Source: a virus (taxonomy: Duplodnaviria; Heunggongvirae; Uroviricota; Caudoviricetes). Taken from it: a stretch of DNA of 28,904 nt. The position numbers and the translations under genes are program-made. The stretch's first letter is position 1. Each line of letters opens with the position of its first letter. The notes below the pieces were generated by a model, which saw only the letters and a program-made list of their open reading frames with translations, had not been told where the DNA came from and did not search any database. Shown here one piece after another: positions 1 through 28,904 of this stretch. The stretch is from the IMG/VR virus record IMGVR_UViG_2600254985_000007. One strand, 5' to 3'.

Positions 1-1464
<1,464 letters not shown>

Positions 1465-1495
1465 TTATGAATGATGATGGTTGTAGAAATGCGGA

Positions 1496-1828
1496 TTAAA
1501 CGATGCTGATTGCAGTACCGGCGAACGCGTTACGTTTAATGTTGTCGTCGGTGACGGCAGATGGCCAGAGGACATCTTCAATACGGAAAGAGCCAGATTT
1601 GTAATATGCCAGTTCCGCGCTGTTCTGGTCTGCGGTTACAGCCAGGATGCCCATTGCCGCGCCAGCATGAGCACCATCCCAGACGGTCAGCTTGCCAGAA
1701 GTGGCATCCAGCATGAGCGGCGTCATGGCTGGAGTGGAAGCCGTCAGTTCGCCAGGACCATACGCAGTGTGCGCCGGGTCGCTGTTACCGAGCGGCTGGT
1801 TATGTGTGAAAACTTCAGTAATTGCCAT
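1496..1828 (-). CDS. D: head decoration protein, lambda gpD family
   Basis: 110 aa, ending ...FAGTAISIV; matches lambda gpD length and conserved blocks ([23 protein letters not shown]-like). Confidence 0.92.
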
Positions 1829-1837
1829 GATAGCCTC

Positions 1838-3181
1838 TTAAACGGGGGTGTTTAACAAATCGTCAGCGGCATCAGAAGATGCGCTACCTGCTTGGAGTGC
1901 ACCGGGTGCTGTTTCCATCAAACGATCCAGCGCCGTATCGGTACGCATCTGGGCACTTTGCGGTGCAGCAGCCAGAATGCGCTGTGCGCTCTCTACCGTC
2001 ATACCCGGCGTTTCGGCCAGTGCTCGCGCCTGTGACTCACGCCCTTTAGCCTCGTCGCAGTTCAGGATGCCCATGATGCGACTATTCTCTGCAGCTACTG
2101 CTGCAGTAACCTGCGCACTGACATCTACAGGGGCTGCTACGGAAGCAATTGTCGTGTCAACGGTAGTGGCCTGTTCAGCTGATGCAGTTGTCTGAGTTGC
2201 TGCCTGGTCAACTGGCTTAGTGGTCACAGCTGATGCAGAAGGTGATGGCATAGTTCCTCCAAGGGTTGTTTTTTTGCGTCTGTCGAGTGCTTCGCGCATC
2301 ACGCCGAGCGCATCGGTATTGTTAACAAGTTCATCCGCCAGCCCGTTATCCAAAGATTCCTGGCCGGAGAATACTGCCGCTTCGGTGTCCAGCACGTCCT
2401 GAACAGACATGCCGGTATAAGCGGAAACCTTTTCGGCAAACATCTGACGAGTGGCATCGATACGCGTCTGGAAATCAGCACGCACATCTTTCGGAAGCTT
2501 TTCGTAAGGGTTGCCGTCGACCTTGCGATCGCCGCTGTAAATCAGCGTGACCTCAACGCCGTTAGTTTTGAGCGCAGCGCCATAGTTACTGTGCGCCATC
2601 ATGACCCCAATGGAGCCGGTTCTGGCCGTTTGTGTGACCAGCCGTCGCGATGCCGAACTGGCAATAAGCTGACCTGCACTGCAGTTCATGTCATTGGCCA
2701 GCGCCCAGATGGGTTTGATATCGCGCATACGGGCAATAATGTCGGCGCAGTCAAACGCCCCGGACACCATTCCACCCGGCGTATCCATATCCAGAAGAAT
2801 GCCGTCAACGCCGGGGTCACTGATTGCCTGCTGCAGGCGAGCAATGATCCCGTTGTAACCCGTCATCCCGGAATAAGGCTGAAGCGCACGGGTTTTACTG
2901 ACCAGCGTGCCGGAAACCGGCAAGACCGCGATACCATTTGCCACCTGATAGCTGCGTGATGGACGGGGATCCATGTCATCATCCTCACCAAACAGCGCCA
3001 GCGGTTCGGCTATTTGTCCGGCATCAAGCGTGATGCCAGAGACGGTATCTGTCAGCCGGGTGATGCCCAACTGGCCAGCCAGCGCGCAAAAGAAAACCCG
3101 CGCATAGGCGGGTTCAAGCATCAGCGGCTCATTAAAGGCCATACTGGCAATATGCGGAAGATTACGCAGCTCGTGCGCCAT
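1838..3181 (-). CDS. C: head maturation protease/scaffold, lambda gpC family (S49 peptidase); Nu3-like scaffold expected in-frame in the 3' half
   Basis: 447 aa in the lambda C position between B and D; ClpP/S49-like core; Ala/Thr/Gln-rich C-terminal scaffold-like region. Confidence 0.9.
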   Translation of the reverse strand: MAHELRNLPHIASMAFNEPLMLEPAYARVFFCALAGQLGITRLTDTVSGITLDAGQIAEPLALFGEDDDMDPRPSRSYQVANGIAVLPVSGTLVSKTRALQPYSGMTGYNGIIARLQQAISDPGVDGILLDMDTPGGMVSGAFDCADIIARMRDIKPIWALANDMNCSAGQLIASSASRRLVTQTARTGSIGVMMAHSNYGAALKTNGVEVTLIYSGDRKVDGNPYEKLPKDVRADFQTRIDATRQMFAEKVSAYTGMSVQDVLDTEAAVFSGQESLDNGLADELVNNTDALGVMREALDRRKKTTLGGTMPSPSASAVTTKPVDQAATQTTASAEQATTVDTTIASVAAPVDVSAQVTAAVAAENSRIMGILNCDEAKGRESQARALAETPGMTVESAQRILAAAPQSAQMRTDTALDRLMETAPGALQAGSASSDAADDLLNTPV

Positions 3182-4754
3182 CTTGCTCCTCCTCGTTTGA
3201 TTTTTTCACTCCGGCCTCAAAAGCTGCAGCGGCCCATGCCGGTGGTTTCAGACCCGCAGCACGACGCTCCATGGTTTCCCGGACCTGCTGGGCAAAAATC
3301 TCCTGATAATCATCACCGCGTTTGGCGCACTCTTTTTCATACGTGCTGAGACCTGCCTCAATGAGCATGACGGCCTCCTGTACCTCTTTCAGCCCGTCAA
3401 TTGCCATTCGACCAGAGCCAATCCAGTTGGCATTCCCCCAGGCTGTTCTCGCCTCCTGGAAACTGAACCGGGCTTTCGAAGGAAGCGTGACCACGCGGCG
3501 GACAATCGCCTCTTCAAGCCAGCAAAGAAACATCTGACAGGCCTGTCGGGATGCCACAAACTTGCGACGCCCCATAAAGTACGCCCAGGACTCGTTAGCA
3601 CTTGCGCGTGCGGTCGAGTAGCTCATCTGCGAATAGTTTCGCGAAAGCTGCTCATACGACACACCAAGCCCAGCGGCAATATAACGCAGCAGGGACTGTT
3701 CAAAAGTCGAGTAGCCGTTATCGGTATCCTGCGCCGACTGAAGGTTGAGAGAATCACCCGGCAACAGGTGTGGAACCCTTGCCCCACCCAGGCGAACAGG
3801 CGCAGCTGAGTAATAGGACGCCATTTCACCGAGCCAGCCCGTAAGTTTGCTCTGCTGCTCTTTATTATCCGCGCCGAGAATAAAGTCCATCGCCGATTGG
3901 GTATCCAGTTCACTCTCGATGGTAGCGGCATACATAGCCTTCACTATCGCGCTCTGGAGCTGGGTATTTTGCAGGGTATCGAGCATTTTCATCTGCTCCA
4001 TCACGCTGTAAAACGCATTGGCCCCACGGGTCTGTCCATCCTCCATCGGTTCGAATACATGGATAAATGAAGGTCGACCGCCGGGTAGTTCGCGAGGAAT
4101 GTAGGTCCAGTTCTGCGCCATCCAGCCGGGATAACCATCGTCGCTGACGTAATATCCCAGCGCAGCACCGCTATCATTTATTTTCACACCGGCGCGACAG
4201 TTCCGGGTATCACCGATATTATTCGGATTGCTGACGCGCTTCGGACTGACCATTTTGAACTGAGTACGGAAAAGACGCGTTGAATCGCTGTCCCAGGTCG
4301 CCTGCGTGCATAATTCACCGTTAAACGCGTGCATGGCCACACCTTCTCGGATCATCATCGTAAACGTTCGCTTACGCTCGGCATCAATCCCGCAAAAGTC
4401 GTCCTCGGCATACTCGTTCCAGGCGGCTTCTACATCCCGCGAAAATGCGCGTGAATCCTCCTCATTGATGCCAAGATAGCGCCAGCTCGGTCGATAGCTG
4501 AGTCTGAAAAATGACCCGACGATGTGGTCCTGGTGGAGCTGCACGGCGTTTGCCGCATAGCCATTATTTCTGACCAGATCGTCAGCACGGGCATTTCCGC
4601 GCGAGAAGTTAGGCAGAAGAGCCGCATCAGCACTTTCGCTTGGTGGATTCCAGCCCCGCAACTGACCACCAAACCCTCCGCCGCCGCCATGATACCCCGC
4701 GTATTCCCGGAGGGATGTTTTCCCGTCAGGACCCACTAAAGATGGTATTTTCAT
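3162..4754 (-). CDS. B: portal protein, lambda gpB family
   Basis: 530 aa, N-terminus [38 protein letters not shown]... typical of lambda B; overlaps C start as in lambda. Confidence 0.93.
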
Positions 4755-4957
4755 ACGTAAAACCTTGCAGGCCCCTGGCGTCGTGATGTGGTACCAACCT
4801 GAGATTCAAGGTCAGCAATATACTTTTTGAGATCGGTGACTGAGGTAGCTGTAAATTCCACTCTTCGACCGTCTTTCTGTACCGTCGCCACGCGCTTTCC
4901 CATCATCAGGTCATGTAACGCAGCGCGCGCGGCATCCAGTTCAGTCTGTGTTGCCAT
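4751..4957 (-). CDS. W: head-tail joining protein, lambda gpW family
   Basis: 68 aa, [32 protein letters not shown]... matches lambda gpW; ATGA overlap with B. Confidence 0.92.
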
Positions 4958-6879
4958 TATTCCTCTCCAGACAATGCCCGCGCGTAATCCGCCAGGGTCT
5001 TGTTATTGTTACGGGTGCCTTCTTCCTCCAGCAGGCTGGCAAGAAGTGAATCAAGGTTAAGCTGCCAGCGGGATATGCTTATACGCAGCGCCGCCAGTGC
5101 ATAAACAAAGCAATCGAGCGCCTCATTTCGTCGTTTTTTGCTGTCCCAGACGATCTTTTTCTTTCCGTCTACCCATTTTTCCACCTGCTCTTCAGCTGTT
5201 AGTTGTTGGGCCTCTGTTAGATCGTAGATTTCTGGGTTATTCGGGAAATGAACCGCTCCCGCCAGCGGCTCGTCTCTTTGCGCCACCAGCGTGAAACGGT
5301 TATAAATCTGCTCTTTTGCGGTGTCTGTTCCTACCTCTGTGAGGTAAACACCATTCTTGTTACGCTTGCGTGGCATGTTCGCCACCGGCTTTCCATAAAC
5401 CGACGCCCCCTTTATAGGGATCACACGAAACAGACCGTGTTTTTTTGAGCGGTTGTAGACGATGGTGGGGTCAATACCGCCGATATCCCAGCAGATACGG
5501 GATACCGACATTTCCACGCCATTCTTTCGGAGATAGGTTTTGTTAATCGCCTCGTCCACCCTGACGAGGGTCGCTTCATCATCATGACGGCCCATAATGA
5601 TCTGCCGGTCAATCAGCCAGCTTTCCTCACCGGGCCCCCATCCCCAGACGCGCATTTCATATCGATCCAGTTGGGAGTCGATCCCGGCTGTCAGATAAGC
5701 AACACGCTCCGGTACGGATGCCCCGAAGAACTCTTTGCGTTCGGCCATGAGCTCCGCGTCAGGCCGTTCACCAATTTTAGGCTCCCATGTTTCGCCCAGA
5801 GTGGTGTTCACGAAGGTTTTACGCTTTCCTGTATCCCCTTTCGTTTTTAGCCAGTCTTTAACGATCTGAACCCAGGTGGTAAACGGGCTGTATGCCGTCC
5901 AGATGTGAAACGTCACGCTGTCTGGCGGGTCGATTTCGGTGCCTGTTGATGAAAACCAGGATAAACCGTCGCGCGTCCAGATCCCGGTGGTGTCGCAGAT
6001 GTAACGAGCTTCAGTGAAATCCAGCTCCTGCTGCTTAATGACGCAGGCATTATGTTCACACAGGTAAAAGACGCTGGAGGGTTCGCCCGGTGTCCATTTC
6101 AGCCCGAACGGGGTCTCTTTGTCGCCGAATTTAAGGTACTGCTCTTCACCACAGTGCGGACAGGCAACATGAAAACGCATGAAATGCCCGGACTCGCTGG
6201 CAGCACGCTCAATCTGGCAGGTCCCCTTTGTTTTTGGCGTTGAGCCGCGAATAGATTTGGGCCAGACAGACCCCTCAATACGTTTATCACCCAGGAACGT
6301 CGGGGATCCCTCTTTCTCAATATCTTCATCGAATGCCGCCAGTTCATCGTAACCGGCGACATCGACCGATTTCTCACGATAGTTTTTCGCCGCTTTACCA
6401 CCCAGACACCAGAACCCGCGACCGTTGGAGAAGCGTTTCATACTGAGCGTATTGTCCCGGTGCTTTTTTCCATACCAGGGGGCCAGCGCCAGAAGTGACG
6501 GAATATCGCGAATCGTCGGCTCAACATGCGACTTCATAAAGTTTTCGGCGTCACCATCAGTAGGCAGCCAGATAAGGGAATTTCGCTGCTTGTGCTGAAT
6601 AAAATACGCATAAACACCCAGCAACATTTTTGAATAGCCAACACGGGCAGACTTAACAACGTTGACCTCACGTATGTAATCGTTACCCATCGCATTCATG
6701 ATCGCGCGTTGAAACGGCAACGTTTCCCAGCGCCCTTCCTGGTAGGCCGACTCTTTGGGGAGATAGTAATTATCGTCTGCCCATTCAACCGCCGTTTGCG
6801 GCTCAGGTCGGTACAGCGAAAGTAGACCCGCGCGCGCAGAGTGCTGCAGCCCCTTAACCTGACTGTTCGATATATTCAC
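4957..6879 (-). CDS. A: terminase large subunit, lambda gpA family
   Basis: 640 aa with colinear resemblance to lambda gpA (N-terminal [19 protein letters not shown]...). Confidence 0.95.
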
Positions 6880-7399
6880 TCAGCAACCCCGGTATTATTT
6901 CATCCAGCGCAGCTGCTTTGTTCATGGCTTTAATGATGTCCTTCTTGAGGAAATCAATATGTCGGTTTTCCAGCTCCGGGAAGCGCCGCTGAACCGACAG
7001 AGGAACTCCATCAAGAATGCTGGCTACTTCTCCGGCCATCCGCGACAGCACGAACGTGCAGAATGCGGTTTCCACCACCTCAGCGGAATCTTTTGCATTT
7101 TTTAGTTCCTGGGCATCTGCCTGCGCTCGGGTGAGGCGGTGACGCTCATAGTCAATCGTACCAGGCTGAAGGTCGGATTCCGATGCAAGACGAAGGTCTT
7201 CCACCTCCTTCCGTAATTTCTCATTCTCAATCGCCGCGTCGCGTGCGGAATACCATTCGATAGCCGCGGAAGATTCATAGAGGACCTCATTACCTTTTCC
7301 ACCGCCACGTGCTACAGGCATTCCCTGATCCTGCCAGTTCTGAATGGTTCGCACGCTGACCCCAAATATTTCAGAAAGACGCTTTTTGTTGACCTCCAT
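6854..7399 (-). CDS. Nu1: terminase small subunit, lambda Nu1 family
   Basis: 181 aa, MEVNKKRLSEIFGVSVRTIQNWQDQGMPV... matches lambda Nu1 (winged HTH N-terminus); overlaps A start. Confidence 0.95.
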   Translation of the reverse strand: MEVNKKRLSEIFGVSVRTIQNWQDQGMPVARGGGKGNEVLYESSAAIEWYSARDAAIENEKLRKEVEDLRLASESDLQPGTIDYERHRLTRAQADAQELKNAKDSAEVVETAFCTFVLSRMAGEVASILDGVPLSVQRRFPELENRHIDFLKKDIIKAMNKAAALDEIIPGLLSEYIEQSG

Positions 7400-7640
7400 A
7401 GCTCACTCCATACACAAAAACAGAGAAAGGAAACGCCCTCTGGCTATTTAGCCGTTTTTAAGGCTTATCATTTCCTTTCTTTTCAGGGGGTGTTTACAGT
7501 TAAAACAATGAATTAGCGAGAAGAAGAACGGAAACGGCAAATGCCTGAAAATTTTCATAAATAGCGAGAATCTGCGAGGTCGCCGCCCCGTAACAAGGCG
7601 GATCGCCGGAAAGGACCCGCAAATGATAATAATTATCAAT
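7400..7640 (-). other. cos: cos packaging site region; cosN 12-nt cohesive-end sequence at 7577-7588, cosB toward Nu1
   Basis: Minus strand reads GGGCGGCGACCT (lambda cohesive end) followed by a CGC..TCGCTATTTATG block resembling the lambda left end. Located directly upstream of Nu1. Confidence 0.85.
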
Positions 7641-25777: not shown

Positions 25778-26202
25778 AACGCACACCATTCTACCGCAGG
25801 CCCGGGCGAGCCGGGCAATTCTCCGGCCTCCGTGAACGCGTTATCTGGATGATTCAGACGCGCGGCCGCCCGGTCACTGGCAGCGAAATCGCCGAGAAGT
25901 TTGGCGTATCGCTCATTGAGTTTAACCGGGTCGCCAACGGCATCACCCGCGGCACCGGACAGATAGCGCAGATCGTTGAGTCGGAAAAATGGATCAACGA
26001 GGACGGCATCTGCGACCGGACATTCGACCTGGTTACGAAGCCAAAGGTCATTACGCCGCAGGGTAAATCTCGGCTGTTCACCCGGCGCGCCATAGAGCAG
26101 TCGCAGGAAGGCAGGCGGCAGGAGTGCATTGAACGTGCAGCACGCCGTCGCCGCCTGATTGCTCAGGGCCTCTATATCGACGAAATGGAGTCCATCCTAT
26201 GA
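25774..26202 (+). CDS. hypothetical protein (142 aa), Arg-rich
   Basis: ATG 25774 overlaps the exo stop (ATGA); a GTG at 25768 is an alternative start; no family recognised. Confidence 0.55.
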
Positions 26203-26351
26203 CTCACGCTCACGACGACATCAGCGTAGGCACACTGTGCCTCCCCTTCATTGGTAACTGCTGGCTAATACCATGGGGTGAAGTGGTCAGCAATCCATTA
26301 AAGGCGCAGCGGCTCGCTGAGGAATATCGGGAAAGGCAGGAGGCAGCATGA
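26199..26351 (+). CDS. candidate small ORF (50 aa), translationally coupled on both sides
   Basis: Manual translation [50 protein letters not shown]; ATGA overlaps with the upstream stop and the dam start; below the ORF-track cutoff. Confidence 0.35.
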   Translation: MTHAHDDISVGTLCLPFIGNCWLIPWGEVVSNPLKAQRLAEEYRERQEAA

Positions 26352-27233
26352 GATACGGATCTGTTTGCAGTGGAGCTGCGGCGATGCCCATAGAAGAACC
26401 GGCGCTGCGCAGCTGGCAGCGCCCGTTCCTTAAATGGGCTGGCGGCAAATATTCGCTGCTGCCGGAACTGGATCGTTTGATCCCCGCAGGTAAACGCCTT
26501 ATTGAGCCTTTTGTGGGTGGCGGCTCGGTGTTCCTTAACTCAGACAAGCACGAACGCTTCCTTCTGGCTGACGTCAGCGCTGACCTGATTAACCTGTATC
26601 AGATGCTGGCGGTGGTCCCCGATTCGGTGATCTATGAGGCAATGAAGGCATTCAGGCATCTTAATGATGCCGAAAACTATACGTTAATTCGTGAAGCATT
26701 CAACGCGCAGCGGCTGGATGCGGTCGAGCGTGCAGCAGCATTCCTTTACCTCAATCGGCACTGCTTCAACGGCCTGATTCGTTACAACCTGGACGGTTTT
26801 TTTTAACGTCGGCTTTGGGAAATATAAAGCGCCATATTTCCCGGAAGAAGAGATCAAGGCATTTAAGCGGAAGGCTCACGCATGCGTATTCATGAATGCA
26901 GGCTTCAGGCGCACGCTCGCGCTGGCAGGTGATGGTGACGTCGTTTACTGCGATCCGCCTTATGAGCCGCTTCCCGGCACCGCTGGTTTCACTAACTACG
27001 CGGCTGGTGGGTTCTCATGGGATAGCCAGGTAGAGCTTGCGGAAAGCTGTGTGGCAGCCCACCAGCGGGGGGCAAAAGTGGTGATCAGCAATTCTACCGC
27101 ACCGCGCGTAATTGAACTTTACGAACAGCACGGCTTCAATCTGCACCGCGTCAGTGCTCGCCGGGCTATATCCAGCAAAGGCAGTACCCGCGAAACAGCG
27201 AGTGATGTCGTAGCCACTTTGGGAGTGCAGTGA
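26348..27233 (+). pseudogene. dam: Dam-like N6-adenine DNA methyltransferase (D12 class), split by a frameshift in a T8 homopolymer at 26797-26804
   Basis: First ORF carries ...FLKWAGGKYSL... and PFVGGGSVFLN (AdoMet-binding); second ORF carries DPPY. Removing one T from the T8 run restores ...YNLDGFFNVGFGKYKAPYFPEEEIKAF..., colinear with E. coli Dam. Confidence 0.85.
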
Positions 27234-27475
27234 TGATGAAGCTGATTAATCGCAGTAAGCAATCACCTATTGGTCGCCGCGCTTGCGATGTTGCGCTGGC
27301 AGCTCACTTGCAAACATATGGCGACTATGGGCGAAGCAAGATGAAAGAGACTTATACGGTGAAGGTTGAAGGCGTGAAAGTCTGGGTGGAGGTGGTGAAC
27401 CGAAAGGCGAGCTACGTGGCCACAGCGATGACCGGCATGCGCCGTCTCCGCTCCCTGCCCGGGCAGGTTGGTTGA
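27230..27475 (+). CDS. hypothetical protein (81 aa)
   Basis: ORF overlapping the dam stop; no family recognised. Confidence 0.5.
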   Translation: MMMKLINRSKQSPIGRRACDVALAAHLQTYGDYGRSKMKETYTVKVEGVKVWVEVVNRKASYVATAMTGMRRLRSLPGQVG

Positions 27476-27516: not shown

Positions 27517-27714
27517 ATGGATGATATTTTGGTAACGTCAGACCTGACCAGTCGCTACAAAATTTCACGCAAAACCCTTTGGTCATGGCAAAGTGCAGAC
27601 ACAATGCCTCGGGGCTTCGTATGCCCGTTCCCACCCCCTGACTGGCCCGGCAACCCTAACCGCTGGCGCTCTGAGTCAATCAAAGAGTGGGAGGATAAAA
27701 AGAAGATAAATTAA
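27517..27714 (+). CDS. xis: AlpA-type excisionase / transcriptional regulator
   Basis: Small HTH protein ([25 protein letters not shown]...) convergent with and overlapping the 3' end of int; GGAGAG SD. The track ORF starts upstream at a TTG. Confidence 0.65.
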
Positions 27715-28904
27715 CTGAAGGGCTCTCCGATGATCTCTTCAAGATGGCTCTGCCAAACGCGGAGCCAGTGTTTCTGATCATCGATATAGTCATGAAGGTT
27801 GTAATGCGCCATAACCCCCACCATCTGATGCCCGAGCAGCTTTTCAATTACGTGCGGCGGGCAACCTAACTCAGAGAGATTTGTGGCTATCGTCCGCCTC
27901 ATATCATGAAGCGACCACTCTGCCATACCTGTTCCATTCCAAATAGAACGGGCGTAATTGGATGCCACAGGTGAATGAACGGGCGAATCTTTGATCCCGC
28001 CATCAATTTTACGTTGTGAAGTCACCAGGTGATTGGTGTTTATTTTCTTGAGGTGATTTCTGACCAGGTTAACGGCGGCGTCTGAGAGTCCCCTTCTAAT
28101 ATGTACCCGAGTTTTATAACTGCCCGCAGGCACGACCCACTCATTATCATCCAATCGAAACCATGATCTCTCACTAAGTCGAATCTCAGCCGTACGGCAT
28201 CCGGTAAGCATAATAAATTTCACCAGGAAAACGGACTCTATCGACATATGGCTTTTCAACCACTGATAGATTTTGCGCAGATCGTCATCGTCCATCCTGC
28301 GAGTTCTCTTTTTAGGCTTTTGCCCGACATCAGATGGCAGTAATCCCTCGAGTGGGTTTGAGGCGATCACACTTCTGTTAACGCAGAACCTAAACGCCCG
28401 TTTGCACAGCGAAAGCATGTAATGAGCCATCACCCTGCTTTCTATAGAATCGAAGACGTTGATCCAGTGCATTTTCGCTGTGTTATCGACTTTGACATTC
28501 TTCATCGGTTCGGCGATATGTTTCTCAAACACCTGGCGATAGTAATCGACTTTAACTAGCCCGTTAGCGATACAGTGCCTTTCAATCCAGTAATTGAACG
28601 CTTCGGCAACGGACATCGCTTCCTGTCGGGTCTGCTTATCCAGCTTCACCTGCTCTCGCGGATCCAGTCCCTCAGTTAACCAGTTTCTGAATTGTTGGCG
28701 ACGCTCTCTTGCCTGGGTGATACTCATTGCAGGATAATCACCAACATTGAGTTTTACCGCTTTACCGGCCCAGCGATACCGATAGAAAAATGATATTTTT
28801 CCGGCCTGGCTGATTCTGGCGTTGAGCCCGTGCGAATCAGAAATAATCTCGATATCATCTCTTTTCTTGCCGAGCGCCTTCCTGAGCTTTGTGTCGGTGA
28901 TCAT
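27711..28904 (-). CDS. int: tyrosine site-specific integrase, P4-like family
   Basis: 397 aa; N-terminal arm-binding-like region (...[20 protein letters not shown]...) and C-terminal catalytic region (...[15 protein letters not shown]...[18 protein letters not shown]). Start codon is the last three bases of the window, so promoter and att are outside it. Confidence 0.9.

Follow-up and report, generated by a model that had tools for sequence, protein, structure and literature searches.

A fixed extra T in a homopolymer tract has probably made damL of phage phi80 a pseudogene

Introduction

The damL gene of phage phi80 is in our judgement a pseudogene (probability about 0.85). In this reading one T was added to a run of seven (T7) by replication slippage, the resulting run of eight (T8) was fixed in the phi80 lineage, and neither of the two fragments of the methyltransferase is active. 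The evidence consists of the identity of the region with phi80, the distribution of T8 and T7 among phi80 copies and related loci, a nearly identical allele that is intact, and a gene in which no other lesions were found. From these we infer slippage as the mutational mechanism and the loss of activity.

Replication slippage would have placed one T into an in-frame T7 (GGT TTT TTT AAC, coding for G-F-F-N). The T8 allele would have been fixed before the wild-type and dlac lines of phi80 separated, leaving T8 in every sequenced descendant. The TAA stop that results would part the AdoMet-binding half of the protein from the rest of the recognition hairpin and the catalytic DPPY half, and because the halves are parted neither fragment would be expected to methylate DNA.

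That damL is split, and that slippage may be involved, is already known from the public annotation of phi80. The GenBank record JX871397 carries the entry 'damL: DNA adenine methylase pseudogene, disrupted by a frameshift; potential for slipped-strand DNA synthesis (-1 or +2)', the RefSeq PGAP label for the gene is 'DNA adenine methylase, frameshifted', and PMC9764419 lists 'damL (pseudogene)'.

Identity of the window

The window, which is the whole stretch of 28,904 nucleotides that was analysed, corresponds to phi80 over most of its length. By BLAST, window positions 7577-28904 match phi80 46150-24823, and window positions 460-7588 match phi80 7129-1, so that cos is joined as in a prophage. 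Window positions 1-459 are from E. coli cynS. PMC11148124 describes this junction between the capsid gene and cynS for the defective phi80dlacZdeltaM15 prophage, and from its sequence the window is identified as that prophage, carried by laboratory E. coli of the DH5alpha/DH10B type.

Phage phi80 (JX871397, NC_021190) matches the region that includes damL (26300-27300) at 100% identity, and so do the chromosomes of DH5alpha, DH10B, TOP10, JM83, XL10-Gold, EPI300 and further laboratory strains. Compared with damL of JX871397 (26494-27379) and its surroundings, the window shows no base difference over at least 21 kb, and the T8 run, the frame break and the slippage repair that has been proposed are alike. 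The two copies differ in their setting, as the window copy is located in a defective prophage with the capsid-cynS junction at ~460 whereas JX871397 is a viable phage.

Several further observations were made on the ends and joints of the window. At the left end, a 475-aa ORF on the minus strand (1-1428) consists of the phi80 major capsid gene (to ~phi80 7129) fused to cynS, and the lone mismatch to phi80, at window position 476, falls within the capsid-cynS junction zone (460-476). At the joined cos (7577-7588), the two segments aligned by BLAST to linear phi80 have 12 bases in common, equal to the annotated length of the cohesive end. At the right end, int lies on the minus strand (27711-28904); the window ends at the int start codon called by PGAP, and the start given in JX871397 is 15 nt further upstream, outside the window.

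Organization of the damL locus

The T run consists of exactly eight T residues, read in the sequence context ...CTGGACGG TTTTTTTT AACGTC..., and the reading frame at the tract is ...TAC AAC CTG GAC GGT TTT TTT TAA CGT.... The TAA codon closes the Dam (D12-class) frame directly after T8. The coordinates of the features discussed here are collected in Table 1.

Table 1. Positions of damL, its parts and its two neighbours in the window
Feature	Position	Strand	Remarks	Basis
DUF1317 gene, upstream neighbour	26199..26351	+	Stop overlaps the damL start (ATGA, 26348-26351)	ORF, PGAP
damL, D12-class (Dam) adenine methyltransferase pseudogene (PHI80_34)	26348..27233	+	Frameshifted	100% identical to JX871397 26494-27379
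5' fragment of damL	26348..26806	+	152 codons; AdoMet-binding motif I and first half of the DNA-recognition hairpin	ORF, PF02086
MRYGSVCSG, first 9 codons	26348..26374	+	Relic of a C5-cytosine methyltransferase domain	Identical to the starts of C5+Dam fusions
Motif I, F-V-G-G-G (FxGxG)	26510..26524	+	AdoMet binding	Aligned to EPFVGAGSV of E. coli Dam
3' reading frame of damL	26778..27233	+	+1 relative to the start frame; remaining hairpin and catalytic domain	Open from 26778
T8 run	26797..26804	+	Ancestral T7 (GGT TTT TTT AAC) with one inserted T	T7 in relatives
Premature TAA	26804..26806	+	UUU-UAA, a 'slippery run plus stop' context	
Catalytic motif IV, D-P-P-Y	26952..26963	+		Aligned to DPPY of E. 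coli Dam
DUF4060 gene, downstream neighbour	27236..27475	+	Start abuts the damL stop; GenBank start is GTG 27230	

The first-pass annotation, which was made from the window alone, had described a D12-class methyltransferase split into two ORFs at 26348-26806 and 26892-27233, and the ORF list and the Pfam profile PF02086 confirm it. The 5' ORF encodes 152 aa with the C-terminus ...RYNLDGFF*, and the 3' ORF encodes 113 aa. It had further stated that removal of one T from 26797-26804 yields a protein colinear with E. coli Dam, and this also holds. In silico, the deletion gives a 294-aa protein (~33 kDa) that reads ...YNLDGFFNVGFGKYKAPYFPEEEIKAF... across the junction, with ...YNLDGFFNVGFGK... as the junction peptide. 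The frame-restored DamL aligns to E. coli Dam (PDB 4rtj/2g1p) with 233.9 bits over residues 24-289, and the alignment is gapless across the junction (RYNLDGFFNVGFGKYKAPYFPE in phi80, RYNLRGEFNVPFGRYKKPYFPE in E. coli Dam).

The family assignment was examined with PF02086. The frame-restored protein covers profile positions 1-253 of 253 (E 4.9e-58; 197 bits, with a cut-off of 22), of which the 5' fragment covers 1-130 and the 3' fragment 167-253. Motif I is found 5' of the frame break and DPPY 3' of it. The repaired protein has the full-length profile as well as motifs I and IV expected of a D12-class enzyme. A single uninterrupted frame is absent from damL itself, in which TAA at 26804-26806 intervenes and the +1 frame encodes the second half. 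As encoded, damL is best classified as a pseudogene of the Dam (D12) family and would not be a functional member of it.

No other run in the window is as long as eight nucleotides, and shuffles of the mononucleotides give 1.4 runs of at least this length on average. The run alone is statistically unremarkable. It becomes meaningful because it overlaps the frame break exactly and because relatives have T7 at the same place.

The gene is part of the leftward early (pL) operon, which contains gam, recT, exo, a hypothetical gene, DUF1317, damL, DUF4060, xis and int. The damL stop codon, TGA at 27231-27233, overlaps the GTG/ATG starts of the DUF4060 gene (27230-27238), and the sequence GGGAG at 27221-27225 is located 7-10 nt upstream of the DUF4060 start. 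The premature stop would leave ~425 nt untranslated before DUF4060, and this could result in polarity unless the stretch is covered by N antitermination. No Shine-Dalgarno-like sequence that would serve the second ORF's own expression is visible upstream of the ATG at 26892, and no promoter-like site was found on the + strand between 26100 and 27800.

Length of the tract in phi80 copies and relatives

The length of the tract was determined in public assemblies using a query of 135 bases that carries T7, against which a T8 copy gives a span of 136 bases. All 59 phi80-bearing E. coli assemblies (59/59), DH10B (NC_010473) among them, have T8, each at 99.3% identity to the T7 query over a 136-base span. 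T8 is also present in both phage records. One of the matching records, NZ_CP188139.1 from E. coli TUM22769, is a 48,378-bp sequence counted as a plasmid, with the phi80 damL region at 29349-29484; it could represent phi80 in excised or circular form, assembled separately.

Additionally, a pattern scan that allowed 6-10 bases at the tract recovered 3 genome, 18 viral and 8 metagenome loci. The only scan loci with T8 were three environmental contigs (L009, L021 and L033), all of which match phi80 at 99.7-100% identity over 1.9-5.8 kb. T7 was found in 23 distinct related contexts with 87-97% identity, and wherever the locus spans the whole gene in these T7 relatives the ORF is continuous (290-856 aa). 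The natural E. coli isolates that matched best, ET846, ET896, 730V1 and ET791, have the T7 length and are annotated with intact Dam-family methyltransferases. At the consensus level, neither T7 nor T9 was found among the phi80-identical sequences (59 assemblies, 2 phage records and 3 contigs), and T8 was not found among the diverged relatives recovered by the scans and as BLAST homologues.

Since tracts with fewer than six T residues fall outside the scan pattern, the scan is blind to conservation of the tract, which was instead read from the codons of the BLAST homologues. SEN34 and SW-37 have GGT TTT TTC AAT at the tract, and the Dam homologues of Klebsiella, Salmonella and Escherichia phages have NKFN or NQFN at this site, without the tract or the Phe-Phe pair. 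The absence of the tract from these more distant homologues indicates that T7 is an incidental codon choice of one subclade and no hypermutable element under maintenance.

One locus has a tract of a different length. In Apirhabdus apintestini (CP138906.1; L006), the gene on the reverse strand (947-1480 and downstream) has T6 and a -1 frameshift, and after in silico repair a second frameshift is encountered further downstream, near ...AHQRG. This T6 allele would be either an independently decayed copy or the product of homopolymer errors in the assembly, and it carries little weight. It was considered as evidence of a mutational hot spot and was discounted on account of the second frameshift.

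Age of the frameshift and origin of the phi80 form

The nearest intact allele is found in an Enterobacter bugandensis prophage (CAXYPO010000002.1; L008). It shares with phi80 the N-terminus MRYGSVCSGAAAMPIEEP and the gene neighbourhood and differs in having T7 instead of T8, which results in a continuous ORF of 293 aa. The protein is identical to the repaired phi80 protein at 289/294 residues (98%). The two genes differ by 14 synonymous and 4 non-synonymous codons, of which 5 and 2, respectively, are 3' of the tract, and compared with the Enterobacter allele damL contains no further stop or indel. This lack of other damage indicates that the single-T insertion is recent and is the only lesion in damL.

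In many relatives the same DUF1317/DUF4060 locus encodes a fusion protein of 610-856 aa that has both a C5-cytosine methyltransferase (PF00145) and a Dam (PF02086) domain; PF00145 was confirmed in two of the loci, L003 (1324-3498) and L012 (5826-8396). Examples of the fusions are the 724-aa protein of E. coli ET846 (WP_370559866.1) and the 610-aa protein of Citrobacter phage Omnitron. The DNA of their Dam domains is ~92% identical to that of phi80, and the fusions have T7. Unlike the fusions, phi80 damL has lost the PF00145 domain in frame and carries the frameshift. Codons 1-9 of damL are identical to the fusion starts in L003, L004, L010, L012 and others, which indicates that the phi80 form descends from a fusion by in-frame loss of the C5 domain. 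This loss is older than the frameshift because the Enterobacter prophage has the same loss. In other relatives the N-terminus is short and unrelated (MNYGFVNVCVEQ..., MSYCAEISRQ...), which indicates that the 5' end of the gene is modular.

Expression of damL by recoding

The pseudogene interpretation supposes that damL is dead, and two published observations speak against this. A tract of T8 is long enough for measurable slippage of E. coli RNA polymerase (PMC6260861). In addition, a 2026 paper (PMC13449921) relays from Rotman et al. 2012 (J Bacteriol 194:6802) that phi80 DNA gave a different BamHI pattern once damL was deleted, and it suggests methylase activity. The change in the BamHI pattern is ambiguous, as fragment sizes shift with any deletion.

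These observations can be accommodated by a leaky gene, which we regard as unlikely. In transcription from pL, RNA polymerase would skip a U on T8, or the ribosome would make a +1 shift at UUU-UAA by re-pairing of tRNA-Phe, and full-length, active DamL would make up a few percent of the product. Either route restores the exact ancestral sequence ...DGFFNVGFG..., the downstream damL frame is undamaged, and PMC13449921 offers a hint that the restriction pattern depends on damL. The slippery motif is present, in that U8 is followed by UAA and UUU in the P site can pair anew with the UUU of the +1 frame. Koscielniak et al. place slippage of E. coli RNA polymerase at runs of at least 7 T (PMC6260861), a length that T8 exceeds. 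The same paper measured ~10% rescue by one-nucleotide deletion at poly(T8) with a gfp reporter, and the M2.MboII methyltransferase carrying an added T (T8) was rescued likewise. Baranov et al. gave 9 nt as the length at which selection against such runs usually sets in (PMC1088944). For the translational route, 'shifty stops', which are stop codons after slippery runs, raise frameshifting (Weiss et al. 1987, cited in PMC5009743).

Against this, the frameshift is conserved in no relative. The frame is kept in all 23 related contexts, phi80 alone has T8, and the relatives either have the in-frame T7 or are without the tract, so there is no sign of programmed recoding. The RNA 3' of the tract is unremarkable (96 nt, -23.7 kcal/mol, z = -1.0 relative to shuffles), and no clear Shine-Dalgarno-like stimulator is seen in CTGGACGG upstream, although a stimulatory element is not required for transcriptional slippage. 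A conserved programmed frameshift was rejected for lack of conservation and of notable downstream RNA structure. Lambda N antitermination, which acts on pL-type transcripts, cut deletion slippage by ~40% (PMC6260861). Moreover, any effect of DamL would be masked by host Dam in dam+ cells.

If the gene is leaky, the extra T would be an attenuator and not a knockout, with a few percent of full-length DamL made during lytic growth of phi80; we hold this to be improbable. It could provide enough methylation of phage DNA to matter in dam-deficient hosts or against GATC-sensitive defences, without the cost of full Dam overproduction. Active DamL made through slippage would be expected to contribute a little adenine methylation when phi80 lysogens are induced, and it would be a natural example of the T8 rescue known from reporters.

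Phase variation and sequencing error

The first-pass annotation had proposed slipped-strand phase variation and had named a fixed pseudogene and a sequencing error as alternatives. As a contingency locus, the tract would toggle between T7 and T8 in the DNA and turn DamL ON or OFF in populations of phage or lysogens. Phase-variable methyltransferases classically have a homopolymer within the ORF, the GenBank entry raises -1 or +2 slippage, and T6 in Apirhabdus apintestini is a second length variant at the tract. On the other hand, contingency loci call for longer tracts than eight A/T nucleotides where the host is proficient in mismatch repair. At the consensus level no length polymorphism was found in the 59 assemblies, 2 phage records and 3 contigs, and the phi80-bearing strains include lineages that have been separated by classical genetic constructions (strain history, PMC11148124). 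The ON allele is absent from the phi80 copies and the OFF allele from the relatives, the tract is lost in more distant homologues and thus not maintained across them, and the Apirhabdus copy, having its second frameshift, is decayed or comes from an error-prone assembly. The proposal of phase variation is therefore unsupported, and we consider it very unlikely. The assemblies report the consensus only, in which low-frequency T7 revertants in cultures would be invisible.

At the DNA level, damL thus appears to behave as a stable pseudogene and not as a switch. A fixed pseudogene, the first of the two alternatives, is the best interpretation, as T8 is invariant and the orthologues are intact with T7. 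The first-pass annotation had set beforehand that a fixed T8 together with intact orthologues would point to a plain pseudogene, and this was the outcome of the comparison.

The other alternative, that the true tract is T7 and the gene intact, has a negligible chance of being correct: homopolymers are error-prone on several sequencing platforms, but T8 is present in 59 independent assemblies from many laboratories, in the phi80 genome, whose authors explicitly annotated the frameshift (JX871397), and in three unrelated metagenome/viral contigs, which exclude an error.

Significance

The phi80 remnant in DH5alpha, DH10B, TOP10, JM83 and other cloning strains of this kind thus encodes only a broken Dam, the gene being one T away from intact. 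Beyond bookkeeping damL matters little, and leakiness would not change views of phage methyltransferases or of phase variation.

Comparison with known systems

In phasevarions, such as those of the mod genes of Haemophilus, Neisseria and Helicobacter, longer repeats are kept from strain to strain and vary in length between close isolates. damL resembles the mod genes in having a simple repeat in a methyltransferase ORF, the length of which sets the frame. It differs from them in that the tract is short, is not maintained across homologues and is not polymorphic.

The T8 mutant of M2.MboII (+T372) and the gfp reporters (PMC6260861) resemble damL in having a one-nucleotide insertion that creates T8, with a stop nearby. 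In those cases the frame was restored by E. coli RNA polymerase in a measured fraction of transcripts, whereas for damL we infer it only. A further case of rescue by transcriptional slippage is tssM of Citrobacter rodentium (PMC4256274).

The closest well-known enzyme is E. coli Dam. Motif I, DPPY and the equivalents of K9, N120, L122, R124 and Y138 are common to E. coli Dam and phi80 DamL, and Y119F, P134G and R137K are substitutions in the phi80 protein. The frame break in phi80 falls between the equivalents of R124 and P134. We take the roles of these residues, including those of the R124 and P134 equivalents in the hairpin, to be as described by Horton et al. in 2006. Unlike E. coli Dam, which is a GATC N6-adenine methyltransferase, phi80 DamL is phage-borne, is an orphan and is frameshifted inside the recognition hairpin.
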